This document shows positions 5,779 to 48,972 of a stretch of DNA of 64,000 bases, piece by piece. Location: IMG/VR virus record IMGVR_UViG_3300028394_000035. The stretch is one strand, 5' to 3'. How positions within the stretch are numbered: the stretch's first letter is position 1; each line of letters starts with the position of its first letter. Source of the DNA: a virus. The notes beneath the pieces were generated by a model. The model did not search any database, had not been told where the DNA came from, and saw nothing but the letters and a program-made list of their open reading frames with translations. The position numbers were made by a program, and so were the translations under genes.

Positions 5779-7662
5779 ATGAAAAATAGTACTTTTAAAA
5801 ATTGGAGATTTACGACAGATATGATGATGTGTGATTATATTTTGTCCGAAGATCACGAACATTCAATGGCTAGAAGTGAAATTAAAGTAATTCAAAGTGC
5901 AATTAATAGATTGATGCAAAAATTAAAAGGTGAAGGAAATATTGAAGCCTGGGTGCAGTCAAAGATTACGAAGGCAGCAGATTATATTGATACTGCAGCA
6001 GATTATTTAGATAGTCAAGATAATAAAATAGAAGAACAAAATCAAGGACCTAGTAGTCCTGTTAAATCGTATTATCCACCTGAAGATAATCCAGGGGCAC
6101 CAATTATTATTGGACCTAATCGAGGAGCTGCAGGAATTAAATATCCAGTACGATACAAAACACCGTTAGCAACAAATACTCCAAACAAATCAAAGGTTCA
6201 AATGGCATCTTATGAACCAGAAGGTGATCAGATTGATGAGGTTTCTCTTCCAGGAACTGGTACTGTAATGGCACCGTCTGGTGGTGTACCATATGTGCAA
6301 AAAAAAGTATTAGGAGTGACTGTACCATTTAGTCAAAATATTGTATCTCCTTCTACTGGAGGTGTAAAAAAACCCAATCAATATAATCCTAATAATACCG
6401 AGTATTCTTCTACACAAGTTCAAAGATATAATGCTACTAAAAGTGCTCCTAGTGTATTGAAACCAAAAGAAGGAAATCCTGAGTTTGGATATACAAGTGT
6501 TTCTAAAACTCCAGAAAAACCACGTCCAAATTTTTTTAAAAAACCTGACATAACTTCAACTACAAAACCTGCAGAAAAACCAACACCTCCACCAACCACT
6601 GCTTCTGGTGCAATGGCTCAAGGACTTAAAGATGTACCAGTTTTAGGTGCAGTTGCTAATATTGCTAAAAAATATGATGATAAAGTTAATTATAGAAACC
6701 AACCTCCCGAAATAAGAAAACAAATGGGTCTCCAAAATTCTTATGATTTCGAAAGTGAGGTATTTGTTGAGGAAAAAAAAAATAATTGCAACGAAGAAGG
6801 TCTTCGTGATTGGTTTGGTAAGTCCAAATCAAAGGACGGAAAGTCTGGTTGGGTAAATGTAGTAACTGGCGGAACTTGTGCAAGTGATGAACCAGGAGAA
6901 GGAACTCCCAAGTGCGTTTCATCCTCAAAAAGAGCAAGTATGACTGATACAGAAAGAAAATCCGCAGCAAGAAGAAAGAAATTGGCAGATCCAGGACAAC
7001 AATCAAAATCTGGTGCAGCAAAACCAACTTATGTTGCTACTGATGTAAAGGAAGAATCGGATACAAAAACTAAAGGTAGTGGAACCAAAGATGCTTGTTA
7101 TACTAAAGTAAAATCAAGATATTCTGTCTGGCCTTCTGCCTATGCCTCGGGGGCTCTCGTAAAATGCCGTAAAGTTGGTGCTGCTAATTGGGGAACAAAA
7201 TCCGAAAGTACCAATTCGCTTGATGGTGATTGGCATACTCCAATTCGAGAAAGAGCAGATAGATATTGCCCAAAATGTGAAAAACTCGAAAGAAGAAGTG
7301 AATGCAAATACGGTTCAAGATATTGGGATATGTTTTCTTTACCAGCAGAGATAATTAGTTCAAAAAAAGATTATAATATAACAATGCCATATCCCGCAAA
7401 TGAGGAAACAAATATAGACGAAAACTATTTAAGAATACAAACTCGTGGATCTACATATACTATACTAATAAATTGGAGAGGAAAATATATAACAACTCAA
7501 ATGTTTTTCCAACAATTTACCAGACCAACAAAAACGGAAGTAACAAGAGAAATTAGAAAAGTTTATCCAAATGCAATTGTATTAGCATTTAATCCTTCAG
7601 CAAATGATCCAAACAAACCATTATTATTTACAGGAGAACCAAATGGACCCAAATCTTATTGA
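5779..7662 (+). CDS. large modular hypothetical protein (possible head-cargo polyprotein)
   Basis: 627-aa ORF between gp16 and gp17; distinct Cys/Lys-rich modules separated by low-complexity linkers ending in xxE/EE; late-promoter-like CTAAATA just upstream. Confidence 0.8.
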   Translation: MKNSTFKNWRFTTDMMMCDYILSEDHEHSMARSEIKVIQSAINRLMQKLKGEGNIEAWVQSKITKAADYIDTAADYLDSQDNKIEEQNQGPSSPVKSYYPPEDNPGAPIIIGPNRGAAGIKYPVRYKTPLATNTPNKSKVQMASYEPEGDQIDEVSLPGTGTVMAPSGGVPYVQKKVLGVTVPFSQNIVSPSTGGVKKPNQYNPNNTEYSSTQVQRYNATKSAPSVLKPKEGNPEFGYTSVSKTPEKPRPNFFKKPDITSTTKPAEKPTPPPTTASGAMAQGLKDVPVLGAVANIAKKYDDKVNYRNQPPEIRKQMGLQNSYDFESEVFVEEKKNNCNEEGLRDWFGKSKSKDGKSGWVNVVTGGTCASDEPGEGTPKCVSSSKRASMTDTERKSAARRKKLADPGQQSKSGAAKPTYVATDVKEESDTKTKGSGTKDACYTKVKSRYSVWPSAYASGALVKCRKVGAANWGTKSESTNSLDGDWHTPIRERADRYCPKCEKLERRSECKYGSRYWDMFSLPAEIISSKKDYNITMPYPANEETNIDENYLRIQTRGSTYTILINWRGKYITTQMFFQQFTRPTKTEVTREIRKVYPNAIVLAFNPSANDPNKPLLFTGEPNGPKSY

Positions 7663-15100: not shown

Positions 15101-15751
15101 ATGAAACTCATCACAGAAGAAGTACAAAAAGTCAATTTCATCACTGAAGGAAGGGGTGCTTCCAAAAAAATGTTTATTGAAGGAACATTTCTTCAAGGTG
15201 GTGTTAAAAATCGTAACAATAGAGAATACCCAATCCATATTTTAGAACGTGAAGTGAACAGATATAATGAAACATTTGTTCAAAAAGGTCGTGCTCTTGG
15301 TGAACTTGGGCATCCTGATGGACCAACTGTAAATTTGGATCGTGTTTCTCATATGATTACTTCACTTGTTCGTGAAGGAAATAATTTTAAGGGAAGAGCA
15401 CAACTTTTATCTACACCAATGGGCAAAATTGCACAATCACTGATTGGCGAAGGTGTAACTCTTGGAGTTTCTTCTCGTGGTGTTGGTTCATTGCTCCAAA
15501 CAAATGAAGGACATAAAATTGTTGGTGAAGACTTTATGCTTGCAACTGCTGCTGATCTTGTTGCTGACCCATCTGCACCTGATGCATTTGTTCAGGGCAT
15601 TATGGAAGGTAAGGAATGGTGTTGGGATGGTGGAATTCTAAAAGAACAGGCAGCAAAAAAAACATACAAGAGAATCAATACTCTTGTAGATCAAAAAATT
15701 CTTGATGAACACAAAGTGAATTTATTTCAAGAATTTCTATCAAATCTTTAA
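15101..15751 (+). CDS. gp21: prohead protease gp21
   Basis: ALGELGHPDGPTVNLDRVSH and GVSSRGVGSL catalytic motifs. Confidence 0.97.
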   Translation: MKLITEEVQKVNFITEGRGASKKMFIEGTFLQGGVKNRNNREYPIHILEREVNRYNETFVQKGRALGELGHPDGPTVNLDRVSHMITSLVREGNNFKGRAQLLSTPMGKIAQSLIGEGVTLGVSSRGVGSLLQTNEGHKIVGEDFMLATAADLVADPSAPDAFVQGIMEGKEWCWDGGILKEQAAKKTYKRINTLVDQKILDEHKVNLFQEFLSNL

Positions 15752-15797: not shown

Positions 15798-16982
15798 ATG
15801 TCCCGTGGTAAAAACTTACAAGAAATGGAAACAGGCACAACCCAATCTCGCACTGCCGTAAATGCAAATGCAAAGGCAGCAGAACCAATGCAAAAGTTAA
15901 GTACAGGTATTGCTCCTGGTCAAACTGGTAATTGGGAAGACCTCGGTGGACCAACACCAGAGAATTATCGTTCCGATGATGATTCTGCAAAACTCATCAC
16001 TCCTACCGGAACACTTAAGTCCGTAAAGAATGTTGTGACTAAAGGTGCTAAATCTGCAGAAGCAATGCAGAAAATGAAAGAAGCAATTGAAGCACTCGAA
16101 GAAGATGAAGAACTTCTAGAAGCCAAACATAAAAATGATGATGAAGAATCTGAAGATGAAGAATCTGAAGATGAAGAATCGGAAGGTGACGAATCTGAAG
16201 ATGAAGATGATGACGAAGAAGAAGATAAAAAGAAAAAGAAAAAGAAAGTAGAAGAATCTATTAACATTGAAGAAGATGTTGATGCTCTTCTTGCTGGTGA
16301 AGATCTCTCCGAAGAGTTTAGAGAGAAAGCAAAACTTATTTTTGAAACAGCAATTAATGCTAAAATTTCAGAAATTTATGAATCATTAGAAGAGCATTAT
16401 GAATCCAAACTTCTTGAAGAAGTTGATTCAATGAAAGGTCAACTTGTAGAAAGAGTCGATGCATACCTTGAGTATGTTGCCGATGAATGGCTGCAAGAAA
16501 ATGCTCTTATTGTAGAGCAAGGTCTCAAGACCGAGATGACCGAATCATTCCTACAAGGAATGAAAGGTCTTTTTGAAGATCATTATGTAACAATCCCTGA
16601 CGATAAATATAATGTTCTTGAGAGTATGGTAGATAAACTTGATGAAATGGAGACAAAACTCAACGAGCAAATTGAAAGAAATGTTGCTCTAAATCAAAGA
16701 TTAGCAGAGTCGGTTGCCGATGTTATTTTTTCTGATATCACTGAGGGTTTAGCGACTTCTCAGAAAGATAAACTCGCTTCTCTTGCTGAAAATGTTGAGT
16801 TTGATAGTGAAGCAAACTATCGTGAGAAACTAGTAACTTTAAAGGAATCTTATTTCCCAAGAAACACTAGTGCTCAAAGAGATTATTCAGAGACATTATC
16901 TGAAGAAACAAATTACAATGAACCAGTTTCTGGTGTAATGGGATCGTATCTTCAGACTCTGAGCCGAGTTTCTAAAAAGTGA
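15798..16982 (+). CDS. gp22: prohead scaffold protein gp22
   Basis: DVDALLAGEDLSEEFREKAKLIFETA and VDAYLEYVADEW motifs; lies between gp21 and gp23. Confidence 0.95.
   Translation: MSRGKNLQEMETGTTQSRTAVNANAKAAEPMQKLSTGIAPGQTGNWEDLGGPTPENYRSDDDSAKLITPTGTLKSVKNVVTKGAKSAEAMQKMKEAIEALEEDEELLEAKHKNDDEESEDEESEDEESEGDESEDEDDDEEEDKKKKKKKVEESINIEEDVDALLAGEDLSEEFREKAKLIFETAINAKISEIYESLEEHYESKLLEEVDSMKGQLVERVDAYLEYVADEWLQENALIVEQGLKTEMTESFLQGMKGLFEDHYVTIPDDKYNVLESMVDKLDEMETKLNEQIERNVALNQRLAESVADVIFSDITEGLATSQKDKLASLAENVEFDSEANYREKLVTLKESYFPRNTSAQRDYSETLSEETNYNEPVSGVMGSYLQTLSRVSKK
16140..16199 (+). repeat. four imperfect 15-bp coding tandem repeats (GATGAAGAATCTGAA) in gp22
   Basis: Encode DEESE-DEESE-DEESE-GDESE. 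Confidence 0.85.
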
Positions 16983-17030: not shown

Positions 17031-18419
17031 ATGCAAATGTTCGATGGAGAACGTCTGCAGGAGAAGTGGGCACCACTACTTAATTATGAGGGTCTTGATT
17101 CAATCAAGGACTCACATCGCAGAATGGTAACCGCAGTCCTGTTAGAAAATCAAGAAAAGTTTTTAAGAGAGGAAAATCAATTCCTTTATGAAGCACCAAC
17201 AATGGCCGCAGGGTCTGGTGGTTTCAGTGGTTCTTCTACTGCAACCGGTCCTGTAGCAGGTTTCGATCCAGTTCTAATTAGCCTAATTCGTCGTTCTATG
17301 CCTAACTTGGTCGCTTATGACCTTGCTGGCGTACAACCAATGAATGGTCCTACTGGACTTATCTTCGCAATGCGTTCACGTTATACTAATCAATCGGGAT
17401 CTGAAGCACTCTTCAACGAAGCAGATACTTCATTCTCCGGTCAAGATTCCGGTTTTGATGTTACTTCAGGTTTCACTGATGGCGCAGCTGGTTTCGGTAC
17501 TACTTCAAACCCAGCAGGAACCAATCCTGGACTTTTGAATCCAGTTGGAACTGCTGCAACTAATACCTATGCTACTGGTCAAGCAATGGGTACTGCTTCT
17601 GCTGAAGCACTTGGAGATGCAGCTGGTAACCAGTTCAATGAAATGGCTTTCTCAATCGAGAAAGTTACTGTTACTGCAAAGTCACGCGCTCTGAAAGCCG
17701 AGTATTCACTTGAGCTTGCACAAGACCTCAAGGCAATTCACGGACTAAATGCTGAAGCGGAATTGGCAAACATTCTCTCCACTGAGATTCTTGCTGAAAT
17801 TAACCGTGAAGTAATTCGTACCGTTTATAAAATTGCCGAGCAAGGTGCTGCTGTTAATACCGCTACTGCTGGTATTTTCGACCTCGATGTGGATTCAAAC
17901 GGACGTTGGTCCGTTGAGAAGTTCAAAGGTCTTTTATTCCAAATCGAGCGCGATGCAAACGCAATCGCACAAAGAACTCGTAGAGGAAAGGGTAATATGA
18001 TTCTCTGCTCTGCTGACGTTGCTTCGGCACTCACAATGGCAGGTGTTCTTGATTATACCCCAGCACTCAATGCAAACTTGAATGTTGATGATACCGGCAA
18101 CACTTTTGCTGGTGTTCTTCAAGGCAAGTATCGTGTATATATTGACCCATATGCTGCTAACGTATCTGCTAATCAGTACTACGTTGTAGGATATAAAGGT
18201 TCTTCGCCTTATGATGCAGGACTCTTCTATTGTCCTTATGTGCCCCTCCAAATGGTTCGTGCCGTTGGTGAGAACACCTTCCAGCCAAAAATCGGGTTCA
18301 AGACTCGTTATGGTATGGTTGCTAATCCATTCGCTGAGGGTACTGCTCAGGGTTCTGGTCGTCTTCTTGCTAATGCAAACCGTTACTACCGTCGTGTGCG
18401 TGTAGACAATTTAATGTAA
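17031..18419 (+). CDS. gp23: major capsid protein gp23
   Basis: FDPVLISLIRRSMPNL, AKSRALKAEYSLELAQDLKAIHGL, FQPKIGFKTRYG. Confidence 0.99.
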   Translation: MQMFDGERLQEKWAPLLNYEGLDSIKDSHRRMVTAVLLENQEKFLREENQFLYEAPTMAAGSGGFSGSSTATGPVAGFDPVLISLIRRSMPNLVAYDLAGVQPMNGPTGLIFAMRSRYTNQSGSEALFNEADTSFSGQDSGFDVTSGFTDGAAGFGTTSNPAGTNPGLLNPVGTAATNTYATGQAMGTASAEALGDAAGNQFNEMAFSIEKVTVTAKSRALKAEYSLELAQDLKAIHGLNAEAELANILSTEILAEINREVIRTVYKIAEQGAAVNTATAGIFDLDVDSNGRWSVEKFKGLLFQIERDANAIAQRTRRGKGNMILCSADVASALTMAGVLDYTPALNANLNVDDTGNTFAGVLQGKYRVYIDPYAANVSANQYYVVGYKGSSPYDAGLFYCPYVPLQMVRAVGENTFQPKIGFKTRYGMVANPFAEGTAQGSGRLLANANRYYRRVRVDNLM

Positions 18420-33100: not shown

Positions 33101-34105
33101 ATGGACTTTTTAAAAGATATTGTAAAAGAAATTGGTGGAGAATACACACAACTGGCATCCGAAATTGACGAAACTGAAACGTATGTGGATACTGGCAGCT
33201 ACATTTTTAACGCTCTTGTATCTGGTAGCATCTTTGGTGGTGTTTCTGGGAACAAGATTACTGCAATTGCAGGGGAAACTTCTACTGGAAAAACTTTCTT
33301 CAGTCTTGCTGTCGTTAAGAATTTCCTTGATAATAATCCTACTGGATACTGTTTGTATTTTGATACTGAAGCAGCAATCACAAAATCCCTTTTGGAAGGT
33401 AGGGGAATTGACACAACTCGCTTGGTGGTTGTCAATGTAGTCACGATTGAAGATTTCCGTAATAAGACTCTGAAAGCAGTTGATTTATATTTGAAAAAAT
33501 CTAAAGACGAAAGACGACCTTGTATGTTTGTACTTGACTCTTTGGGTATGCTCTCTACTAATAAAGAAATTACAGATACACTTGCCGAGAAGGATACTCG
33601 TGATATGACTAAGGCACAACTGATTAAGGGTGCTTTTAGAATGTTGACTCTTAAGTTGGGTCAGGCAAATATTCCTATGATAGTCACCAATCACACATAT
33701 GAAAGTATGAGTCTTTATGGTGGTAAGCAAATGTCAGGTGGATCTGGATTGCAATATGCATCATCTACAATCGTATACTTATCAAAGTCAAAAGAAAAAG
33801 ATGGAACAGAAGTTATAGGAAATATTATCAAAGCAACAACAAAGAAATCAAGATTAAGTAAAGAAAACAAACAAGTTGAAATTCGGTTATTTTATGATGA
33901 ACGTGGACTTGATAAGTATTATGGATTACTTGAACTTGGTGAGATTGGTGGATTGTGGAAAAATGTCGCAGGACGTTATGAGATTGGTGGTAAAAAAATC
34001 TATGGTAAAGATATATTAAAAGATGTAGACAAGTATTTTACTCCAGAAGTAATGCAAGCACTTGACGAAACTGCACAAAAAGAATATTCTTATGGAAGCT
34101 CTTAA
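33101..34105 (+). CDS. uvsX: RecA-like recombinase UvsX
   Basis: GETSTGKT, VLDSLG, IVTNHTY, GGSGLQYASS. Confidence 0.97.
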   Translation: MDFLKDIVKEIGGEYTQLASEIDETETYVDTGSYIFNALVSGSIFGGVSGNKITAIAGETSTGKTFFSLAVVKNFLDNNPTGYCLYFDTEAAITKSLLEGRGIDTTRLVVVNVVTIEDFRNKTLKAVDLYLKKSKDERRPCMFVLDSLGMLSTNKEITDTLAEKDTRDMTKAQLIKGAFRMLTLKLGQANIPMIVTNHTYESMSLYGGKQMSGGSGLQYASSTIVYLSKSKEKDGTEVIGNIIKATTKKSRLSKENKQVEIRLFYDERGLDKYYGLLELGEIGGLWKNVAGRYEIGGKKIYGKDILKDVDKYFTPEVMQALDETAQKEYSYGSS

Positions 34106-34649: not shown

Positions 34650-36025
34650 TGGAAAAAATTGAAACTACTATTCTTCGCAATCTTCTTTTTAATAATGAAT
34701 ATTGCAGAAAAGTATTGCCTTTTATTAAAACGGAGTATTTTGAAAACCTTCACGAGAAAGTAGTTTTTGAAGAGATTTGTAAGTTTATTGTTGCTTATGA
34801 AGAACTTGCTACTAAAGAAGTTCTTTTAATTGAAACTGAAAAAAGAACAGATATTACAGAGGATACTTACAAAACTATTTGTGATTATGTTTCAAAACTT
34901 GATGATGGACACGCAGATTTAGAATGGGTAACTGATACTACCGAAAAATGGTGTCGTGATAGAGCAATTTATCTTGCTTTGATGGAAAGTATCAAAATTG
35001 CTGATGGTCAAGATGAAAAGAAAAACAGAGATGCAATTCCAAGTATTCTTCAAGAAGCATTAGCAGTTGGTTTTGATAATAATGTTGGGCACGATTATCT
35101 AAATGATTTTGAGAAACGTTATGATTTTTATCACAAAAAACAAGAAAAAATACCATTTGATTTAGATTATTTCAATAAGATTACCAAAGGTGGTATACCA
35201 AATAAAACACTCAATATCGCTCTTGCCGGAACTGGTGTTGGCAAATCTTTGTTTATGTGCCACGTTGCTGCTTCTGTTCTTTTACAAGGAAAGAATGTTC
35301 TTTATATAACTCTTGAAATGTCAGAAGAAAAGATTGCCGAACGTATTGATGCAAATCTTTTAAATATTAATATCAAAGATATTGAAACACTTCCAAAAAT
35401 AATGTTTGAAAGTAAAGTAAATGCTATTGCAAAGAAAACACAAGGAACTTTAATCATTAAAGAATATCCAACTGCTTCAGCACATTCGGGACATTTTAGA
35501 GCATTATTAAATGAACTGCAATTGAAAAAATCATTTCGTCCTGATATTATTTTTATTGATTATTTAAATATTTGTGCTTCTTCAAGATATAAAGGTAATC
35601 TTTCGGTTAATTCTTATTCTTATATTAAATCAATTGCTGAAGAATTAAGAGGGCTTGCGGTAGAAATGAATGTTCCTATTTTTAGTGCAACACAAACTAC
35701 TCGTAGTGGTTCTACAAATTCTGATCCAGATTTGACTGATACTAGTGAGTCTTTTGGTCTTCCTGCGACTGCTGACCTTATGTTTGCTTTGATTTCTACC
35801 GAAGAATTAGAACAATTGGGACAGATTATGGTAAAGCAACTTAAGAACAGATATAATGACCCAACATCCAATAAAAGATTTGTTGTTGGAATAGATAGAG
35901 CAAAGATGAAACTTTATGATGTAGAACAAAACGCTCAAGATGGTATACTTGACGCTGGTAAAGATGAAGAGTATAATGATGAAGAAAAGAAACCTAAAAA
36001 ATCATTTGAGGGATTTAAATTCTAA
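34649..36025 (+). CDS. gp41: replicative helicase gp41
   Basis: AGTGVGKS, FIDYLNI, SATQTTR, KQLKNRY. Confidence 0.98.
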   Translation: MEKIETTILRNLLFNNEYCRKVLPFIKTEYFENLHEKVVFEEICKFIVAYEELATKEVLLIETEKRTDITEDTYKTICDYVSKLDDGHADLEWVTDTTEKWCRDRAIYLALMESIKIADGQDEKKNRDAIPSILQEALAVGFDNNVGHDYLNDFEKRYDFYHKKQEKIPFDLDYFNKITKGGIPNKTLNIALAGTGVGKSLFMCHVAASVLLQGKNVLYITLEMSEEKIAERIDANLLNINIKDIETLPKIMFESKVNAIAKKTQGTLIIKEYPTASAHSGHFRALLNELQLKKSFRPDIIFIDYLNICASSRYKGNLSVNSYSYIKSIAEELRGLAVEMNVPIFSATQTTRSGSTNSDPDLTDTSESFGLPATADLMFALISTEELEQLGQIMVKQLKNRYNDPTSNKRFVVGIDRAKMKLYDVEQNAQDGILDAGKDEEYNDEEKKPKKSFEGFKF

Positions 36026-36026
36026 T

Positions 36027-36437
36027 ATGACCCAAGTTATTGATACAAAAAAATATATTGAGTTCGTTCGTGAAACTACAAGTAAAGCAAGTAGTGATTT
36101 TCCTTCTTTGCTTTCTCGTCTAACTGAATTGGAAATTGGAGATGCAGATGTCCCTCGTCTTATGACTGCTGCATTTGGAGTGAGTGCCGAGGCAGGAGAA
36201 CTTGTAGAAATTATAAAAAAAATATTCTTGCAAGGAAAGCCATATAATGAAGAAAATATCATCCATATGAAAAAAGAGGCAGGAGATATTCTCTGGTATA
36301 TGTCTCAACTTTGCATTGCTCTTGATACTACTTTTGAAGAATTGATGGAAATTAATTACCAAAAACTATCAGCAAGATATCCAGAAGGAACTTTTGATAT
36401 TCATCGTAGTGAAAATAGAGTAGAGGGGGATTTGTAA
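36027..36437 (+). CDS. mazG: MazG-family nucleotide pyrophosphohydrolase
   Basis: EAGELVE...KKEAGDILWY; start taken at ATG 36027. Confidence 0.92.
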   Translation: MTQVIDTKKYIEFVRETTSKASSDFPSLLSRLTELEIGDADVPRLMTAAFGVSAEAGELVEIIKKIFLQGKPYNEENIIHMKKEAGDILWYMSQLCIALDTTFEELMEINYQKLSARYPEGTFDIHRSENRVEGDL

Positions 36438-36444
36438 AACATAC

Positions 36445-36476
36445 ACTCTCTCCTCTTTTGGGGAGAGTTTTTTTTT
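36445..36476 (+). terminator. rho-independent terminator after mazG
   Basis: ACTCTCTCC/GGGGAGAGT stem plus T9. Confidence 0.85.
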
Positions 36477-36483
36477 ATAAATA
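36476..36483 (+). promoter_or_regulatory. T4-type late promoter (TATAAATA)
   Basis: Exact consensus directly after the terminator. Confidence 0.85.
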
Positions 36484-36517
36484 TAAGAAAATAAGGTAGA
36501 GTAGGATATTTTTTTAT

Positions 36518-36745
36518 ATGAAAACTTTTAAAATATTTTTAGAGAATGCAGCAGAAAATCTTGCAGCACTAAGAGCAAAAAGCGAAAATCGTAAACAAGA
36601 ACTAATGCAACAAATTGCTACTCAAAGACAACAAAAAAAAGAAGATGAAGAATTAGAAAATACAATAAACAGAGAAATTGAAGAAAGAGAAAAAGCAAAA
36701 ACAAATAAAAGAAAACCCACAAAATTAGAAGACAAAAAAAGATAA
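36518..36745 (+). CDS. small charged protein with a capsid-targeting-like N-terminus
   Basis: MKTFKIFLE/N start; downstream of a late promoter. Confidence 0.7.
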   Translation: MKTFKIFLENAAENLAALRAKSENRKQELMQQIATQRQQKKEDEELENTINREIEEREKAKTNKRKPTKLEDKKR

Positions 36746-36772
36746 GATAAATAACTAGAAAACCTAGTATAA

Positions 36773-37966
36773 ATGAAGACATTTGTCCAATTCATCAAAG
36801 AAGCCACAGAAACCCTTGCATCTACTGAAGCAAAGAATAGAGGTCTTGTGGGTGATGGACACGGGGATTGGTTTGATAAGCAAGGGAAGTTAATAGCAAA
36901 AACAGTTGGCGGAAAGTTAAAATATTTTGGACAAGGTGAGAAAAAACAACAACCAGAAGTATCAGTAAAACAAAAAGTATCAACACAACAAGCAACACCT
37001 ACAACACAACAAGGACAAGTAGGACAGCAGGAAACCCAAGAGGAGCAACCAAATGGGATTGTAATTTTACTTGGTAGATTTAATCCTCCATCCAAAAATC
37101 ACGAAGCATTATTAGCAGCAGGTTATAATCAATCAATAAGAAAAAAATATGAATATCGTATCTATCCAAGTCGTATTCAGGATGGAGATTTAAATCCACT
37201 CAATCCACAATTAAAGATTTCATATATGAAATCTATGTTCTCCAAGTATGCAGATTATATTGTAGATAGTGATAATATTAAAACTATTTTTGATGTTTTA
37301 AGTTCTGTTTATAATGATGGTTATACTGATGTAGTAATTGTAACAGGGCAAGATAGACTTGGAGAATTTCAAAGTTTAGCACATAAAGGTGAAGGTCAAA
37401 ATTATCAGTTCAATAATATCGAAGTAGTTTCGTCTGGTGTAAAGGACCCTGATAGTGATGTAGAAACTGCTGGTTCTTCGTCAATGATGAGAACTGCTGC
37501 TGCACTTGGTGATTATGAAAAGTTTTCTGCTGGATTGCCACCATCTATGAAGATGGGCGAAAAACAAGAAATGTTTAATACTTTATCAAAATCAATTAAG
37601 GTAACAGAAAATACACAACTTTGGAAAATTGCACCAGAATTGGATATTAGCGGATTGAGGCAAGATTATAAAAATAATGGTCTTTTTGATGTTGGAGCAT
37701 TAGTCGAAAATCAAAATACTGGATTGATTGGAAGAATACTTCGTCGTGGTGCAAATCATTTAATTTGCGTAACGAAAGAAGGTGTAATGTTTAAGAGTTG
37801 GTTAAAAGATTTGAGAGAAGTATATGAAGTTGGAACTTGCTCTTACCGAGCACACGCACAATCAATTACACCAGGCCAACCAGTAGTTTCTTTTACGGAT
37901 GTAGAGATTAAAGAAACAATACCAAAGAAAAATATAAATATCAATAAAGCAGCAAAAGTAAAATGA
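36773..37966 (+). CDS. cytidyltransferase-like (HIGH-superfamily nucleotidyltransferase) protein
   Basis: LGRFNPPSKNHEALL, NPLNP, VTGQDR, SSSMMR; N-terminus MKTFVQFIKE/A. Confidence 0.8.
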   Translation: MKTFVQFIKEATETLASTEAKNRGLVGDGHGDWFDKQGKLIAKTVGGKLKYFGQGEKKQQPEVSVKQKVSTQQATPTTQQGQVGQQETQEEQPNGIVILLGRFNPPSKNHEALLAAGYNQSIRKKYEYRIYPSRIQDGDLNPLNPQLKISYMKSMFSKYADYIVDSDNIKTIFDVLSSVYNDGYTDVVIVTGQDRLGEFQSLAHKGEGQNYQFNNIEVVSSGVKDPDSDVETAGSSSMMRTAAALGDYEKFSAGLPPSMKMGEKQEMFNTLSKSIKVTENTQLWKIAPELDISGLRQDYKNNGLFDVGALVENQNTGLIGRILRRGANHLICVTKEGVMFKSWLKDLREVYEVGTCSYRAHAQSITPGQPVVSFTDVEIKETIPKKNININKAAKVK

Positions 37967-39042
37967 GAACTTGGAAGGAAGTTATACAAGAAGCAAGTGC
38001 TACTGAAATTAAAAGAGCAGGAGAAGCAGCATTACGAGATGAAAGAAATAAAAATAAAGCAGAAAAAATAACAAAAGGCAAATCTTCTTATCAGGATTAT
38101 TTGGAAAAACAACTTGCATTTAAAAAGGACAAATACGAAGCACAAAAAAAAGCACAAATTGAAAGAGCGAAAGAAAAAAATGTCCAAGGACCTTTAGATC
38201 AAGCAAAGGCGTCACTTAAAGGAATTCAAACCCAAACTATTTCGGACAAAGATAAGGAAGGCACGGCATATTCTAAACTTATGGGAAATGTTGGTTCTAC
38301 TGCTGTTGGAGTTGGTGGTGCTGTATTTCACGGTATAAGAGCATTAGCAGCAAGAAAAAAAGCAGAAACAAAAGCAAAGGAGAAACAACAAGAAAAAAGA
38401 GAAAGAAAAGCAGCTGGAAGACCACCTGGAAAAACTGAAAAAAAAGAAAATCCTTCACCCGAAGCACCAACTGCTAAAACAGAAAAATCACAAGAACAAC
38501 CAAAATTACTTGTTCCATCTACAAAAAGACTTCCTCCATCTGGAGGTACTGGTGGTCGTGGTGCTAAAAAGCAAACACTTGGACAAAGAGCAAGAAATAA
38601 TCCAGCAATTAAAGCAGGATTAATTACTCAACGTATGGAAAGTTATTCTAATTGGAGAGAAGAACTTTTAATTGAAGTAGACGAAAAAGATAAAGGAAAA
38701 AAAGAAAAAATTATAGATGTGATGAAAGGAAAAAATACAATCATTATCAATCCAGAAGATAAAAAGGTAAATGAAGAATCTGCTGCTTGGCAAAGAAAGG
38801 AGGGAAAGAATCCAGAAGGTGGATTAAATGCAAAAGGAATTGCGTCTTATCGTAAAGAAAATCCTGGTTCAAAACTCTCTCTTGCTGTGACTACTCCACC
38901 ATCAAAACTTAAAAAAGGTAGTAAAGCAGCAAATCGTAGAAAGTCTTTTTGTGCTCGTATGGGAGGAATGCCTGGACCTATGAAAGACGAAAAAGGTCGC
39001 CCAACCAGAAAGGCATTAGCATTAAGAAAGTGGAATTGTTAA
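37963..39042 (+). CDS. basic modular hypothetical protein
   Basis: MRTWKEVIQE/A start; C-terminal Lys/Arg-rich module (ESAAWQRKEGKNPEGGLN...RKSFCARM...RKWNC). Confidence 0.75.
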   Translation: MRTWKEVIQEASATEIKRAGEAALRDERNKNKAEKITKGKSSYQDYLEKQLAFKKDKYEAQKKAQIERAKEKNVQGPLDQAKASLKGIQTQTISDKDKEGTAYSKLMGNVGSTAVGVGGAVFHGIRALAARKKAETKAKEKQQEKRERKAAGRPPGKTEKKENPSPEAPTAKTEKSQEQPKLLVPSTKRLPPSGGTGGRGAKKQTLGQRARNNPAIKAGLITQRMESYSNWREELLIEVDEKDKGKKEKIIDVMKGKNTIIINPEDKKVNEESAAWQRKEGKNPEGGLNAKGIASYRKENPGSKLSLAVTTPPSKLKKGSKAANRRKSFCARMGGMPGPMKDEKGRPTRKALALRKWNC

Positions 39043-39093
39043 ATTGTGGTAAAATAGATAAATAAAATAGGAACATTTCACCTAGAGGTTATT

Positions 39094-39279
39094 ATGTCAG
39101 TCGCAATCGTATGGGCATGGGTATCAGCTAATCAAGCACTTTTAGCAACTGTATTATTTGCAGTTTCGGAAGCACTTGGAGCAAATCCAAAAGTCAAGGC
39201 TAACGGTATTCTTTCACTTATCATTATTCAGGCACAAAATGCTTTGAAAGCAAAAGGCGCAAAAGACATTACTCCTTGA
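39094..39279 (+). CDS. small membrane protein (holin candidate)
   Basis: 61 aa with two hydrophobic segments and a basic tail; GAGG RBS and GATAAATA upstream. Confidence 0.6.
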   Translation: MSVAIVWAWVSANQALLATVLFAVSEALGANPKVKANGILSLIIIQAQNALKAKGAKDITP

Positions 39280-39313
39280 GAGTAATTATAAAAAAACTCA
39301 ATTTATTAAATTA

Positions 39314-39339
39314 TAGTGAATTTTTCAAAAAATTCACTA
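39314..39339. repeat. perfect AT-rich inverted repeat
   Basis: TAGTGAATTTTT-CA-AAAAATTCACTA. Confidence 0.8.
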
Positions 39340-39357
39340 AATATAAAATAGATTTAC

Positions 39358-39384
39358 TGGGGAGTAAATAACTCCCCATTTTTT
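39358..39384 (+). terminator. rho-independent terminator
   Basis: TGGGGAGT-AAATA-ACTCCCCA plus T6. Confidence 0.85.
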
Positions 39385-39419: not shown

Positions 39420-40454
39420 ATGGCACTCTGGGGCATTTCAACAACAACCGAAACTGCGGCAAATAATTATAACATTCCAAAGTTTATGCACATCGTTGAC
39501 AAAAACATTACAGGGCATAATGTTTTTGCTGATGGTCGAGGATGGATACACAGACACTACAAGAGTTCTGAAAACTCTGGAATTAGCACCAGGTATTATG
39601 ATGAGGTTTTAGTTCCTGTTGCTGGTCTGAATACTGCTGGTAGTGGTTCTAATAGTACAGGACACGGAAATTCTACTCCAGTAGCAGTTTTCTTCGAAGA
39701 TCCAAACAAGGCATCACCAATCTCTGTTGGTGGTGGCGGAACTACCGGTATTGCTACTAATACTACTGGATATGTTCATCTTGTTTATAATGAACTGGTT
39801 TATGTTTCTGCCGGAGCAACAGTTAGAATTCGTACCTTTGATGCTAATAATGCAAATGAAAGCACTGCAATTGTTGGGACAGCAGCATCAGTTACACCTG
39901 GAGCACCAGTTGTTAATTATGTAAATGTCAATGGATTGACTGTTTTTACAAATTATAACGGACAGATTACAAATAGAGTAGCATTTGCCTTTACTTCACC
40001 AAGTACTGTTTTGACTGCAAACGTTCCATTCACAACATCAGTAACTACGACAGGACAAACTGTTGCGATTGGTGGAACTAATATCTTTGTTGACTCAGTA
40101 ACGGGTGTTTCTATTGGAAGTTCACTTACAGTAGCAGGTAAACTTACAAATGTTTCTGTTGTTGCTGTTGGAACTACTTCTGTTCAAATTGGAACTGCAA
40201 GTACAATTTCTTCAACAATTACTGCAGGACTTGGAGTTACATTTAGCACAAGAACAAATGCTACAAAGTTGTTTATTGATATGAGTAGAGGATTTATTGG
40301 TGTTGGTACTGATGGTGCAACTGGCGTTGGTATCATTAGCTCCTTTACTTCTGACATCATTCGTCAAATAGGCGGTGCTGGAACTTATCTTTCTTTACAA
40401 AAAGATGGAGTAACTGCCGTTGGACTTGGAACAACTACATTAACAGTTAGATAA
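39420..40454 (+). CDS. putative virion structural protein (MALWG-start type)
   Basis: Late promoter; Thr/Ser/Gly/Val-rich; MALWG start as seen in T4-like cyanophage proteins. Confidence 0.65.
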   Translation: MALWGISTTTETAANNYNIPKFMHIVDKNITGHNVFADGRGWIHRHYKSSENSGISTRYYDEVLVPVAGLNTAGSGSNSTGHGNSTPVAVFFEDPNKASPISVGGGGTTGIATNTTGYVHLVYNELVYVSAGATVRIRTFDANNANESTAIVGTAASVTPGAPVVNYVNVNGLTVFTNYNGQITNRVAFAFTSPSTVLTANVPFTTSVTTTGQTVAIGGTNIFVDSVTGVSIGSSLTVAGKLTNVSVVAVGTTSVQIGTASTISSTITAGLGVTFSTRTNATKLFIDMSRGFIGVGTDGATGVGIISSFTSDIIRQIGGAGTYLSLQKDGVTAVGLGTTTLTVR

Positions 40455-40462
40455 TATACAAT

Positions 40463-40834
40463 ATGAGATTTGATGAATTGAATGAAGAAAACTACATAAT
40501 CTTTGCGATTAAACATTATGAAAATCCACAAGCAATTACGCAAGAGGATTTTTTTGAAGATATGAAAAGATTTAAGTGGATTAAACGACTTCTAAACAAA
40601 TATAAAAATACCGGTGATTTAAATACTCATTTAATCATTAATCACTTTATGTCTCTTTATAATGTATTTGGAGAATCTACAACACCTTTATTGTTTTATA
40701 AAATTAATAAAGAACTTTGGGGTGTTTTAAAGACTTTTGTTTTATATCTTGGAAGACTTCCAGAATATCCAAAAACTACAATACACGATATACCAGTAGA
40801 CATAGAGTGTCTTAAGATTTTAAACTCAATCTAA
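40463..40834 (+). CDS. conserved T4-like hypothetical protein
   Basis: FDELNEENY..FAIKHYENP...RFKWIKRLL...HLIINH motif; typical position upstream of primase. Confidence 0.75.
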   Translation: MRFDELNEENYIIFAIKHYENPQAITQEDFFEDMKRFKWIKRLLNKYKNTGDLNTHLIINHFMSLYNVFGESTTPLLFYKINKELWGVLKTFVLYLGRLPEYPKTTIHDIPVDIECLKILNSI

Positions 40835-41046
40835 TGAAAGAAGAAGTTCTATTAAAGGTTATTAGTATTATTCGTAATCTTCGAGAAGACGGAATAATAT
40901 CCTCTGGTGCGCCAACAAATAATGCTTCAGGTGAAAATATTGCAGGTCTTCCTCCGGACAACCCACCAGTAGATTTAAGAAAAAAAAAATATAAAGGTAT
41001 TCCATTTTTTTACAAAAATATCTTTAGGAGAAAGAAAAATGTTTAA
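40834..41046 (+). CDS. small hypothetical protein
   Basis: 70 aa with LRE/D..PTNN..IAGL..PPV and a basic tail; coupled to both neighbours. Confidence 0.65.
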   Translation: MKEEVLLKVISIIRNLREDGIISSGAPTNNASGENIAGLPPDNPPVDLRKKKYKGIPFFYKNIFRRKKNV

Positions 41047-46037: not shown

Positions 46038-47471
46038 ATGTCTAATTTTTACAAAAAAGAAAACATAAATGAAGGTTTGAGTTTTGAAATAAAACCGTCC
46101 AGAGGAATTGGAGCATTAACACCTGACGCAGCTCAACAACTAGGACCAAAAGCAGTTGAACTACAAAAGAAAAAAGCAGCAGAAGTAGATCTTCCTAACA
46201 AGTCGGGCGTTAAACTTGCAAATTCATATAAACCGAAAGGAAAAATAGTAAAAGAAGCACACTACAATCCTACGACTGGAAAAATTCAAGCAGAAAAACC
46301 ATCAGAAGAAGAAATTAATACGTTGGCAAAAAAAGCAGCAGCATCTGGACCAAAGAAAAGAAAACCAGTTGGTTCAGTTCGTAAAAATAGTGCGACCTTC
46401 AAACCATCATCACCAGAGCAAGCAAAGGCGGATATGAAAAGTTGGAATGATTATTGGAGTGGAAGTGAAACAATTGATGTAGGTGCTGATGCTGGTTCTA
46501 CTATTAGCGATTTCGTCCATTCAAAGAGCAAAACATTCAAGGGTGATAGTACGAAGCAAAGAATTAAGAGAGCACTTGGTGCTTATTATGGAGCACAGAA
46601 AGAAGAAATAGAAAATAGTTATGAGTGTGTGATAGAAGCACTTGTAGAATATGGATTTGCCGAAGATGCCGAAACTGCAAACGATATGATTATTGGATTA
46701 AGTGAAGGTTTTATTGGTATGATATTTGAAGAATATTTGGAAGAGAAAGCAAGAGGCACTAGACCAAAAACAACTGCACACGCATATGATATGGACGAAA
46801 CTTTGTTTGGTCACGACCATTCAAAGGTGAATGTCCACGTTCATAATGAAAAAGGAGAGAGAACTCAAAGTTTGAGTAATCAAGAATTCAATACTCATAA
46901 ACTTCCAAAGGGTCATTCTTATAACTTTGATGAGTTTAGAAGTTCAAAGGTTTTTGAAAAGTCAGCAAAACCTTTGAAAAAAATGATTAAGCATTTGAAT
47001 AAACAAAAAGCACGAGGATATGATACTCATATTGTAACGGCTCGTAGTGATATGGACGATCAACCTGCATTTGCAAAACATCTTTCTAAGTATGGTATTA
47101 ATATCAATCCAGGAGAAAACGGTAAAGGACATACTCACGTTCATCGTACAGGTAATCTTGAAGGTAGTGATGTTGGAGTAAAGAAGAAAGATACACTTCA
47201 AGGTTTATCACAAAAACACGGATATAAGAAAATTCATATGTATGATGATGCTGCAAAGGTCCATAAGGCGGTTCAAAACACACCAGGAGTTGAGGTCAAA
47301 ACTCATATGGTAAAACCAAGAGGGAAGTCAGGTGAAGTGCGACCACGGTCGTTTAGAGCAACCGAAACACAAAAAGAAGAATATTATATTGATTTTGGAA
47401 TTAATAATATACAAGAAGTGAAAGAAATAGACATTACGCCTTATGAATACTGGAAAGAAAATATAAGATAA
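46038..47471 (+). CDS. modular protein containing an internal HAD-superfamily phosphatase domain
   Basis: Motif I YDMDETLF, motif II IVTAR, Lys in VKKKD, motif IV MYDD, embedded between low-complexity modules. Confidence 0.75.
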   Translation: MSNFYKKENINEGLSFEIKPSRGIGALTPDAAQQLGPKAVELQKKKAAEVDLPNKSGVKLANSYKPKGKIVKEAHYNPTTGKIQAEKPSEEEINTLAKKAAASGPKKRKPVGSVRKNSATFKPSSPEQAKADMKSWNDYWSGSETIDVGADAGSTISDFVHSKSKTFKGDSTKQRIKRALGAYYGAQKEEIENSYECVIEALVEYGFAEDAETANDMIIGLSEGFIGMIFEEYLEEKARGTRPKTTAHAYDMDETLFGHDHSKVNVHVHNEKGERTQSLSNQEFNTHKLPKGHSYNFDEFRSSKVFEKSAKPLKKMIKHLNKQKARGYDTHIVTARSDMDDQPAFAKHLSKYGININPGENGKGHTHVHRTGNLEGSDVGVKKKDTLQGLSQKHGYKKIHMYDDAAKVHKAVQNTPGVEVKTHMVKPRGKSGEVRPRSFRATETQKEEYYIDFGINNIQEVKEIDITPYEYWKENIR

Positions 47472-47499: not shown

Positions 47500-48972
47500 A
47501 TGAAGCAAGAGAATTTAGACGAGCTTAAAAATATCTACTTAGGTTTGGTGACTGGTGGGGAAGGACCGGAAGTGTTGAGTGAGGCACCTACTCAATTTGC
47601 TAAAGATTTACAGAATAATATAAGAGATACGGCAGCTCAAAAAACAGTTAATAAAGCTCTTAGTGGAGGACTAAAACCTGCTGCAACACCTACAGTTCCG
47701 AGACCTGCTGCACCTACTCAATTTGCTAAAGATTTGCAGAATAATATAAGAGATACGGCAGCTCAAAAAACAGTTAATAAAGCTCTTAGTGGAGGACTAA
47801 AACCTGCTGCAACACTACCAGCAAAAAAAGTTGGTCCTAAGATTGTAGGTCCTAAGATTGTAGGTCCTGGTGGTGATAATAGTGGAGGAACACCAGCAGG
47901 ACAAGCACCAAAACCTGCTGCTCCAAGACCAGCAGCAGCACCTACAAAACCAATGGGTGGCGCTCCTATGGACCAGTTTGCAAGAGCAAATCCAACTCTT
48001 GCCGCCAAAGTAAAACCAGGGCAATCTGGATATGATACTATCAACACAAGATTATCTGCCGATAACGATAGAGGACCAAGCACACCAACACCAGCAGCAG
48101 AACCTTCTGGTGAAACTGATAGGCTCAAAAAGGCACTTGACATCAAAAAGTCAGATGTGACCTCTTCTTATGAATGGTCTTCAGTAAAAACTCTAAAGAA
48201 TATTGCAGATGCATATTCTAGTGTTTATGAGAAGAAAGAATATGAAACATCCAGAGATAAAGACAAAGATGGTGATAATGACTTTGCTGATAATATGATT
48301 GCTCGAATGGTTGCTTCTGGTATGTCCCGTGAAGAAGCAATTAAGAAAGTAAAGAATAAGTCTTATAATGAAGAAATTGAGTATATTGAAGAAAGAGACG
48401 AAGGCAAACCAGGTTTAATGTTTAAGAAGATTGCTGCAAAAGCAGCAAAGAAATATGGTTCAAAAGAAGCAGGCAATAGAGTTGCTGGAGCAATTCGTAA
48501 GAAAGTTCTTGCAAATGAAGCAACTGCGATGGCTAAGAGAGGTCTTGATGAACCTGCAATTCGTAATAAGATTGCATCAACAACTCGTGGCGATGAGAGT
48601 GCAGACAAAGCAACTGCACTAGCAGATCGTGAAACTTATGGTGATAATAAAAAGAAAGAAGGTAGAGAGAAACTTGCAAGAAAGCAAAGAGGCGATTTCC
48701 GTGATACGACTTCTTCAAATCCTGGACTTCACGGATATGCATACAAAGCAACAACCGATGCTGATAAAGAAAAGCAGGCAGCAAGAGGAAAACAAAGAGG
48801 TGTCCTAACTCCTAATGAAAAGAAGACCCTGAATAGAGAAGAAGTTCATATCTATGATACTATTATATCACACTTACTTGAATATGGTTTCGCAGATACA
48901 GAAGAAGGTGCAGATGTGATTATTGAAAATATGAGCCAATCTTGGATTAAACAAATCCTAAGTGAAGATTGA
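47500..48972 (+). CDS. modular low-complexity hypothetical protein
   Basis: 490 aa with Pro/Ala/Lys-rich linkers and an internal duplication; GATAAATA upstream. Confidence 0.75.
   Translation: MKQENLDELKNIYLGLVTGGEGPEVLSEAPTQFAKDLQNNIRDTAAQKTVNKALSGGLKPAATPTVPRPAAPTQFAKDLQNNIRDTAAQKTVNKALSGGLKPAATLPAKKVGPKIVGPKIVGPGGDNSGGTPAGQAPKPAAPRPAAAPTKPMGGAPMDQFARANPTLAAKVKPGQSGYDTINTRLSADNDRGPSTPTPAAEPSGETDRLKKALDIKKSDVTSSYEWSSVKTLKNIADAYSSVYEKKEYETSRDKDKDGDNDFADNMIARMVASGMSREEAIKKVKNKSYNEEIEYIEERDEGKPGLMFKKIAAKAAKKYGSKEAGNRVAGAIRKKVLANEATAMAKRGLDEPAIRNKIASTTRGDESADKATALADRETYGDNKKKEGREKLARKQRGDFRDTTSSNPGLHGYAYKATTDADKEKQAARGKQRGVLTPNEKKTLNREEVHIYDTIISHLLEYGFADTEEGADVIIENMSQSWIKQILSED
47584..47815 (+). 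repeat. 106-bp direct repeat, two copies with a 126-bp period
   Basis: 47584-47689 and 47710-47815 differ at one synonymous base (TTA/TTG); both encode APTQFAKDLQNNIRDTAAQKTVNKALSGGLKPAAT. Confidence 0.9.
47833..47868 (+). repeat. 15-bp coding tandem repeat (GGTCCTAAGATTGTA x2.4)
   Basis: Encodes GPKIV-GPKIV-GP. Confidence 0.85.

Follow-up and report, generated by a model that had tools for sequence, protein, structure and literature searches.

Tags resembling the T4 capsid-targeting sequence mark three adjacent, predicted late genes of a T4-like cyanomyovirus as probable head-internal cargo

In a 64,000-nucleotide stretch of viral DNA (IMG/VR record IMGVR_UViG_3300028394_000035; the whole stretch is called here the window), three consecutive open reading frames (ORFs), named ORF1, ORF2 and ORF3, begin with MKTFKIFLE/N, MKTFVQFIKE/A and MRTWKEVIQE/A, respectively, where the slash marks a known or predicted cleavage position. 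These N-termini resemble the capsid-targeting sequence (CTS) of the internal proteins of phage T4, and our analysis indicates that the three proteins are probably T4-style cargo of the head interior, processed by the prohead protease gp21. Confidence in this reading is higher for ORF2 and lower for ORF1, because the tag of the latter is one residue short and ends in F-L-E/N.

The window has a G+C content of 32.8% and carries gp13 to gp23, UvsY, UvsW, UvsX, gp41, MazG, gp61 and NrdAB in the order usual for T4-like cyanomyoviruses; judged by its sequence, its source is a member of this group. A megablast search of the window against the phage record collection returned no near-identical record.

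The N-terminal tags match the determinants of the T4 capsid-targeting sequence

In the T4 record (NC_000866), IPII and IPIII begin with MKTYQEFIAE/A and IPI with MKTFKEFTSTTTPVSTITE/A, its first residues being MKTFKEF, and the propeptide of Alt is MELITE/LFDE. The first 10 residues of IPIII suffice for incorporation; within the T4 CTS, residues 4 and 7 mainly determine targeting and residues 8 and 10 processing, and gp21 cuts after the Glu of L/I-x-E (PMC9026906). The targeting determinants, an aromatic residue at position 4 and a hydrophobic one at position 7, are present in all three proteins of the window (F4/F7 in ORF1 and ORF2, W4/V7 in ORF3), and the gp21 motif at positions 8 to 10, followed by a small residue, is found in ORF2 (I-K-E/A) and ORF3 (I-Q-E/A).

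In the six frames of the window, the pattern M[KR][STPN][FWY]xx[FILVM][FILVM]xE matches twice, against 0.05 matches expected, and its 9-residue variant once, against 0.02 expected, the expected counts being taken from 100 Markov-1 simulations of the window. All three matches are the starts of the adjacent ORF1, ORF2 and ORF3. Three such tags are far beyond chance. The likeness to the T4 CTS, first pointed out in a preliminary description of this DNA, is borne out by a residue-level match at the experimentally defined determinants and by conservation across hundreds of relatives.

To assess the genome-wide specificity of the tag, a DNA-level pattern was run against the complete genomes of eight phages, which together span about 1.6 Mb. 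Nine matches resulted, each on the coding strand of its record, while the reversed control gave none. In the T4 genome, the strict pattern is found only in ipII, ipIII and gene 61.1; in cyanophages, it is found in the ‘cytidyltransferase’ and in several small basic proteins of late modules. The small basic tagged proteins are PSSM2_115, SfFS3_117 (between gp16 and gp17) and SfFS3_169; PSSM2_115 adjoins PSSM2_114 (MRTFQEFLQLCE) and a ‘virion structural protein’. Less strict N-terminal patterns were discarded: in S-SM1 they also match spurious ORFs on the antisense strand, and in the window they match UvsX.

T4 gene 61.1 encodes a 54-residue hypothetical protein that starts with MKTFKEFIKE (NC_000866 18966-19130, minus strand). 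Genes 41 and 61 flank it, and in cyanomyoviruses the CTS-bearing cluster occupies this same interval.

The genome of the window also encodes the head machinery of the T4 route: a gp21-type protease, a gp22 scaffold, and a gp23 with an LYE/A site (Table 1). By analogy with T4, gp21 is presumed to be the processing enzyme of the tagged proteins and gp22 their docking partner. The abundance of [LI]xE sites in gp22 fits its wholesale degradation by gp21, as in T4.

The tag is conserved across relatives

Among the best 120 of the 5,607 homologs of ORF2, 119 start with M-K-[TS]-F-x-x-F-[IV]-x-E-A. The corresponding start of ORF3, M-[RK]-x-W-x-E-[IV]-I-x-E-A, is present in 108 of its best 120 homologs, including some that share only the C-terminal DUF6321 with it. 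The invariant positions are 4, 7, 8, 10 and 11, that is, the T4 determinants plus the P1’ alanine. At these residues the codons vary synonymously (AAA/AAG, TTT/TTC, ATA/ATC/ATT, GAA/GAG, GCA/GCC/GCT), which places the constraint on the tag peptide and not on the RNA.

In 80 related viral contigs, CTS-like starts number 147 on the strand of the ORF2 homolog and 2 on the other, and of the 70 loci whose downstream sequence is long enough, 50 have a CTS start on the gene after the ORF2 homolog. In relatives of ORF3, both ends persist, the decapeptide and the C-terminal DUF6321, whereas the part between them is exchanged. Nine related loci keep the start of ORF1, MKTF[KQ]IFLE[ND], and its frame (67-76 aa), whereas the body diverges.

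Variants of the tag are found on other ORF2 homologs, as in P-TIM40 (MRFLDFIKE/A) and in Melnitz, a T4-like phage of Methylophilales (MKKFSEIIE/A). The presence of the tag on the same enzyme in the latter indicates that the arrangement predates the cyanobacterial host range. Homologs from jumbo phages that are not T4-like align with ORF2 only from about residue 95, and the tag-bearing part has no match there. In Melnitz (MZ577095.1 13273-15614), a 130-residue basic protein (MKKFSELTSELIE/R) is followed by the 650-residue protein with the MKKFSEIIE/A start, in which the nucleotidyltransferase domain comes directly after the tag and is followed by long C-terminal additions.

ORF1 to ORF3 belong to a predicted late transcription unit

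The preliminary description had placed a late promoter before three tagged ORFs in a row, and its coordinates and N-termini proved exact. The window has 11 copies of the T4-type late promoter box, TATAAATA, on the plus (coding) strand and two on the minus strand; the box lies 21-37 nt ahead of the start codons of gp18, a gp67-like gene, gp22, ORF1, ORF3, and the genes at 39420 and 46038. Since a second terminator-like hairpin follows downstream of ORF3, the unit extends to about position 39378 and includes a further ORF of 61 aa. From promoter boxes spaced as for gp18 and gp22, the region 36476-39378 is predicted to be a late transcription unit. A search for transcript data on this phage or on T4-GC 190 returned none.

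ORF2 is the cyanophage-core ‘cytidyltransferase’

ORF2 matches the PHROG family phrog_395, ‘cytidyltransferase’, at 1e-76, and is 35-48% identical over the full length to proteins of S-SM1, P-SSM2, P-TIM68 and Sf-FS3. In the cyanophages with these homologs, too, the gene is flanked by mazG/gp41 and gp61. We assign ORF2 to T4-GC 190, the ‘cytidyltransferase’ of the cyanophage core and a nucleotidyltransferase of the NMNAT/PPAT-like type. No Pfam family matches it at E ≤ 0.01, and its family profile found no sequence match in the PDB.

The AlphaFold2 model of ORF2 has a mean predicted local distance difference test score (pLDDT) of 73.5, with about 80-94 in the nucleotidyltransferase domain. The chain begins with the CTS, set in a helix, and continues with a conserved module that forms a small beta-hairpin (aa 11-53; aa 24-51 in the model). 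A disordered linker (aa 54-90) leads to the Rossmann nucleotidyltransferase domain (aa ~95-275), and a beta-barrel (aa ~305-352) makes up the C-terminal part. The best Foldseek matches are NadM (2qjo), NaMNAT (9rpm) and PPAT (3x1j), with a probability of 1.0 and E-values down to 9e-6, and ORF2 as modelled has a Rossmann-like nucleotidyltransferase fold. Its nucleotide-binding signature is GRFNPPSKNH (aa 101-110), and an SSSMMR motif is present. In relatives, the end of the signature is TxGH (S-SM1, Sf-FS3, P-TIM68) or HAGH (P-SSM2, P-TIM40).

ORF1 and ORF3 are basic proteins, and ORF3 has one conserved internal motif

The protein of ORF1 is basic, with an isoelectric point (pI) of 9.6, highly charged and helical, and belongs to no family in Pfam or PHROG. 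ORF3 is very basic (pI 10.1), largely helical or disordered, and mosaic: the CTS is followed by long helices, a Gly-rich hydrophobic segment, a Pro-rich disordered linker, a conserved motif and DUF6321. The last of these scores 82.1 bits, against a Pfam gathering cut-off of 28.5, and is a member of the family. Modules of ORF3 recur in SfFS3_168, a ‘structural protein’, and the T4-GC 119 protein of S-SM1 (1488 nt) carries the DUF6321 of ORF3 together with modules of the protein encoded at 5779 in the window. A fold search with ORF3 was dropped on account of its poor structure model (pLDDT 57).

The conserved motif of ORF3, YSNWREELLIE/VD, lies between disordered linkers and resembles both the CTS and a gp21 site. 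In related loci, the pattern E-x-[YF]-S-[NDS]-W-[RK]-[ED]-E-[LFI]-[LI]-x-E/[VI] occurs 65 times on the coding strand and not once on the other, with E226, S229, W231, E234 and E238 as invariant columns. The motif looks like an internal copy of the tag, and one relative has two in-frame copies of MKTWKEIITE, 149 codons apart. A single internal cut at YSNWREELLIE/V is plausible from the sequence; the release of many small peptides is not.

The preliminary description had listed further internal x-x-E sites in these ORFs. Per 100 aa, [LI]xE sites number 0.6-1.3 in ORF1 to ORF3, which does not exceed the mean of the window (1.5) and compares with 5.6 in the gp22 scaffold. The listed sites are thus no more than chance, and only WREELLIE/V belongs to a conserved motif. 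ORF3 has two strict [LI]xE sites, one of them in the internal motif, which falls short of a significant depletion (P = 0.33). In ORF2, the internal sites of the broader type [LIVFM]xE are within conserved folded domains, which makes their conservation uninformative.

Relatives of ORF2 are detected in cyanophage virions

Within the cyanophage core, T4-GC 190 has been described as an ‘experimentally determined virion structural protein’ (Sullivan et al. 2010, PMC3037559). In S-SM1 virions, the peptide counts were 25 for T4-GC 190, 18 for gp20, 8 for gp21 and 13 for T4-GC 119 (PMC3037559 Table S8). The neighbors of T4-GC 190 in the mazG-gp61 interval of S-SM1, T4-GC 1453, 1454, 1455, 425 and 426, were detected by mass spectrometry (MS) as well, as was T4-GC 119 (PMC3037559). 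T4-GC 1455 of S-SM1 starts with MLSFKELQE/K, and its P-SSM4 relative with MLSFKAYLAE/K. The NMNAT of S-SCSM1 (ORF91) was also found in virions, with two further phages cited, including S-CBWM1 (PMC9602691); this protein is 40% identical to ORF2 from residue 1. The authors regarded such proteins as probably carried by the virion and proposed no packaging mechanism (PMC9602691). In the searchable literature, which did not cover the subscription papers on Syn9 and S-PM2, we found no paper linking the CTS or the T4 internal proteins to cyanophage proteins, and searches on CTS/IPIII in cyanophages returned T4 reviews only.

Weighing the head-cargo interpretation

Several points weigh against the interpretation of ORF1 to ORF3 as head cargo. 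Direct evidence for N-terminal cleavage, head-internal location and ejection is lacking in any cyanophage; we infer these steps, together with docking, by analogy with T4 IPI-III, and the role of the enzyme in the host is a guess. T4-GC 190 was undetected in S-PM2 and Syn9 virions (PMC3037559), the NMNAT of S-SCSM2R is not among its 23 detected virion proteins, and the authors who report detection themselves consider that abundant late proteins may be carried over (PMC9602691). The MS-detected T4-GC 119, 1453 and 1454 of S-SM1 have no tag, which means that the tag is not the sole route into the particle and that detection in virions does not by itself place a protein in the head lumen. The ORF1 tag has 9 residues and its site departs from L/I-x-E. 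In the AlphaFold2 model of ORF2, the N-terminal helix (aa 4-22, modest pLDDT) runs across the predicted cut. The activity of ORF2 is uncertain given SKNH in place of (T/H)xGH. This Ser and Asn are kept in close relatives, which indicates a lineage-specific variant and not decay. Finally, the non-virion protein UvsX starts with MDFLKDIVKE and matches a loosened tag motif, an example of the false positives given by relaxed patterns.

Some of these points would also suit a function unrelated to capsids, in which the tag is an amphipathic helix that binds a membrane or a partner, or a translation or stability element spread by duplication, and detection in virions is contamination. The carry-over raised by the proteome authors, the loosely similar UvsX N-terminus and the modeled placement of the tag peptide in a longer helix are in its favor. 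We nevertheless consider this very unlikely: the tags match the T4 determinants residue by residue, including the Glu-Ala cleavage dipeptide; the strict pattern in T4 retrieves the known internal proteins and gene 61.1 only; the tag is confined to T4-like phages with a gp21-type protease; selection acts on the peptide rather than on the RNA; and detection was repeated by independent laboratories in different phages.

A role inside the prohead that ends at maturation was considered too. Under this explanation, the tagged proteins, above all ORF1 and ORF3, would be core or assembly components like T4 gp67 and gp68, degraded or expelled and never delivered. With 25 counts, T4-GC 190 exceeds gp20 and gp21 in mature S-SM1 virions, ORF3 is poor in gp21 motifs, unlike a scaffold, and an enzyme fold is unlikely as a scaffold; we regard the explanation as quite unlikely, even though ORF1 and ORF3 are charged, helical or disordered and without enzymatic domains, T4 IPIII itself influences head morphogenesis (PMC9026906), and T4-GC 190 is missing from the virion proteomes of S-PM2 and Syn9.

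Other ORFs proposed as members of the system

The preliminary description had extended the system to a dispersed set that includes the ORFs at 5779, 46038, 47500 and possibly 40834. A six-frame scan of the window found no CTS in any of the four. The idea of a dispersed set is only weakly supported, but it is not refuted by this, as the families of 46038 and 47500 have conserved N-terminal leaders of a different kind, ending in [LIV]xE/[AG], among them MSNFYxE/G and MSG..KFKRIYSE/G. In the 47500 family, 95 of 150 cluster representatives have the leader M-[NDK]-x-[KQE]-[DNE]-L-x-x-L-x-E-[AL]-Y-x-x-V-Y with [LV]xE/[AG] near residue 27, and the same leader is present on a few homologs of the HAD-phosphatase protein 46038. 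From its sequence, the 47500-type leader may represent a second class of propeptide or targeting signal.

By tblastn, 46038 has no homolog in 50,697 phage records, and 47500 has one in S-WAM1 only among the phage records. Searched with a hidden Markov model (HMM) built from the 47500 family, neither S-SM1 nor the genes neighboring the cytidyltransferase in four phages gave a match. For both 46038 and 47500, we found no virion-detected relatives and no S-SM1 homolog. A 42-aa segment of 47500 (APTQFAKDLQNNIRDTAAQKTVNKALSGGLKPAAT...) is doubled by a tandem repeat of 126 bp that is nearly perfect (1.8 copies, 99% match).

The ORF at 5779 is inserted between the genes of the small (5329) and large (7835) terminase subunits. 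Its protein is composed of Cys-containing modules (GLRDWFGKSKSKDGKSGWVNV..., DACYTKVKSRYSVWPSAYASGALVKCRKVGAANWG, RYCPKCEKLERRSECKYG) with no Pfam family, which recur, reordered, in P-TIM68 gp159, SfFS3_117 and SfFS3_168, ACG-2014f gp129 and T4-GC 119 of S-SM1. These common modules tie it to MS-detected virion proteins of the T4-GC 119 type, but detection in virions does not locate a protein in the head.

In the 70-aa ORF at 40834, the residues that follow NLRE/D (GIISSGAPTNNASG...PPVDL) are similar to the stretch of gp23 downstream of the maturation site (FLYE/APTMAAGSGGFSGSS...DPVL), and the ORF may be a mimic of the N-terminal arm of gp23. S-SM1_197 (T4-GC 426), MS-detected and annotated as ‘major head protein’, starts directly with a gp23-like segment.

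On the fuller form of the earlier proposal, ORF1 to ORF3 and these four ORFs would all be head-packaged polyproteins, chopped by gp21 into many small basic peptides and two enzymes, a nucleotidyltransferase and an HAD phosphatase. We consider this unlikely. It can draw on the strongly conserved internal YSNWREE[LF][LI]xE/[VI] of ORF3, which is CTS-like, fits [LI]-x-E and lies between disordered linkers, on the relative with two MKTWKEIITE copies, on the TATAAATA box of 46038 itself, on the conserved leaders of the 46038 and 47500 families, and on the modules that 5779 has in common with MS-detected T4-GC 119 proteins. Against it stand the missing CTS of all four additional ORFs, the two strict sites of ORF3, the position of the ORF2 sites within folded domains, and the lack of virion evidence or an S-SM1 homolog for 46038 and 47500. 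Moreover, none of ORF1 to ORF3, 5779, 46038 and 47500 shows an enrichment of [LI]xE (0.6-1.4 sites per 100 aa versus 5.6 in gp22), and the single conserved internal motif, that of ORF3, does not amount to a source of many peptides.

Table 1. Features of the window, in order of position. Positions refer to the 64,000-nucleotide stretch.
Feature	Position	Strand	Remarks
ORF 5779	5779-7662	+	627-aa mosaic protein, between gp16 and gp17; no CTS
gp21 prohead protease (Peptidase_S77)	15101-15751	+	PF03420 1.4e-35; phrog_207 2e-79
gp22 scaffolding core	15798-16982	+	phrog_237 2e-102; 22 [LI]xE sites
gp23 site L52-Y53-E54/A55	17184-17192	+	equivalent to T4 L63-T64-E65/A66
UvsX	33101-34105		starts MDFLKDIVKE
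mazG	35940-36437		directly upstream unit
Terminator-like hairpin	36445-36468	+	9-bp stem, 5 GC pairs, T8 tail; ends mazG unit
T4-type late promoter box TATAAATA	36476-36483	+	34 nt upstream of ORF1 ATG (36518)
ORF1	36518-36745	+	75 aa, MKTFKIFLEN
ORF2	36773-37966	+	397 aa, MKTFVQFIKEA
ORF2 decapeptide MKTFVQFIKE	36773-36802	+	predicted cut before Ala11
Second TATAAATA box	37933-37940	+	within ORF2 3’ end, 22 nt upstream of ORF3 ATG
ORF3	37963-39042	+	359 aa, MRTWKEVIQEA
ORF3 decapeptide MRTWKEVIQE	37963-37992	+	predicted cut before Ala11
ORF3 internal motif YSNWREELLIE/VD	38644-38682	+	aa 228-240; CTS-like, gp21-type; between disordered linkers
DUF6321 (PF19846) of ORF3	38803-39033	+	aa 281-357; E = 4.5e-23; two conserved Cys
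Small hydrophobic ORF	39094-39279	+	61 aa; last gene of the ORF1-3 transcription unit
Second terminator-like hairpin	39358-39378	+	closes ORF1-3 unit
Next TATAAATA box	39384	+	precedes T4-GC 425-like virion protein gene at 39420
ORF 40834	40834-41046		70 aa; segment after NLRE/D resembles gp23
ORF 46038	46038-47471	+	477 aa; late promoter box; C-terminal HAD-phosphatase-like domain; N-terminus MSNFYKKENINE/G, not CTS
ORF 47500	47500-48972	+	490 aa; leader MKQENLDELKNIYLG...VLSE/AP; 126-bp tandem repeat
Tandem repeat in ORF 47500	47584-47815		126-bp unit

Comparison with known packaged proteins

The closest known system is that of T4 IPI-III (Mullaney & Black 1996; PMC9026906), to which the proteins of the window are linked by the decapeptide M-K-T-[FY]-x-x-F-I-x-E/A; ORF2 shares 7 of 11 residues with IPII/III. 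The likeness extends to the aromatic residue at position 4, the hydrophobic residue at 7, I/L at 8 and Glu at 10, to genes that are predicted to be late, to the presence of gp21 (S77) and gp22 in the genome, and to cargo proteins that are either small and basic, like ORF1, or of variable, mosaic build. The differences are that the mature parts of ORF1 to ORF3 are unrelated in sequence, that the cargo of the window includes an enzyme of about 45 kDa and a mosaic DUF6321 protein, that ORF3 has Trp at position 4 and ORF1 is one residue shorter with F-L-E/N, and that the genes are clustered in the gp41-gp61 interval.

T4 Alt, a packaged ADP-ribosyltransferase, is likewise an enzyme carried in the head and processed by gp21, expected to act at the first moments of infection. 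It has a different propeptide (MELITE/LFDE) and is also cut at its C-terminus, and its ADP-ribosyltransferase fold and chemistry differ from those of the HxGH-type nucleotidyltransferase ORF2. With the T4-GC 190 virion proteins (PMC3037559; S-SCSM1 ORF91, PMC9602691), ORF2 shares family membership, but the window copy has SKNH where these have TxGH/HxGH. The propeptides of the phiKZ and SPN3US ejection proteins offer a looser parallel: many head-internal proteins are matured there by a prohead protease that cuts after Glu, whereas the consensus and protease lineage are different and the propeptides are long, with no common 10-residue tag.

Proposed packaging route and its significance

We propose that ORF1, ORF2 and ORF3 would be made late as CTS-bearing pre-proteins, whose short amphipathic N-terminal peptide would dock them on the gp22 core as it assembles on the portal. 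The gp23 shell would form around the docked proteins and enclose them, and gp21 would then cut after Glu10 (I-x-E/A; Glu9 in ORF1), freeing the mature proteins in the head, where they would stay with the packaged DNA until they leave through the tail at infection. The cargo would comprise the small basic ORF1, the NMNAT/PPAT-like ORF2, and the basic, largely disordered DUF6321 protein ORF3, possibly cut again at YSNWREELLIE/V. The predicted mature N-termini are ATETLASTEAK... for ORF2 and ASATEIK... for ORF3. Our leading guess for ORF2 in the host is an early NAD-related or nucleotidyl-transfer chemistry that favors infection.

These results support the extension of the T4 mechanism to Kyanoviridae and supply a candidate packaging route for a protein already seen in virions. 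The finders of the NMNAT-like ‘cytidyltransferase’ in cyanophage particles left undecided whether it is cargo or contamination (PMC9602691), and the tag offers a concrete and testable mechanism. A broader picture, which we put forward tentatively and consider doubtful as a whole, is that T4-like cyanophages and their relatives in other marine bacteria have a general, leader-addressed head cargo system, in which enzymes are injected and act before phage gene expression. Short, exchangeable leaders ending in a gp21 site would fall into at least two classes, the T4-type CTS and the M-N-x-x-D-L-x-x-L-x-E-A-Y-x-x-V-Y...[LV]xE/A leader of the 47500 family. They would address shuffled modules, including the NMNAT-like nucleotidyltransferase, HAD phosphatase, DUF6321 and Cys-rich modules; the enzymes among them could, for example, restore NAD+ against NAD-depleting defenses.

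If the head-cargo interpretation of ORF1 to ORF3 is true, abundant viruses of the ocean inject a nucleotidyltransferase and other proteins at the onset of infection, which would bear on host take-over and counter-defense in Prochlorococcus and Synechococcus. Many ‘hypothetical’ late genes would gain a role, and a native targeting tag would be available for loading proteins into cyanophage heads.

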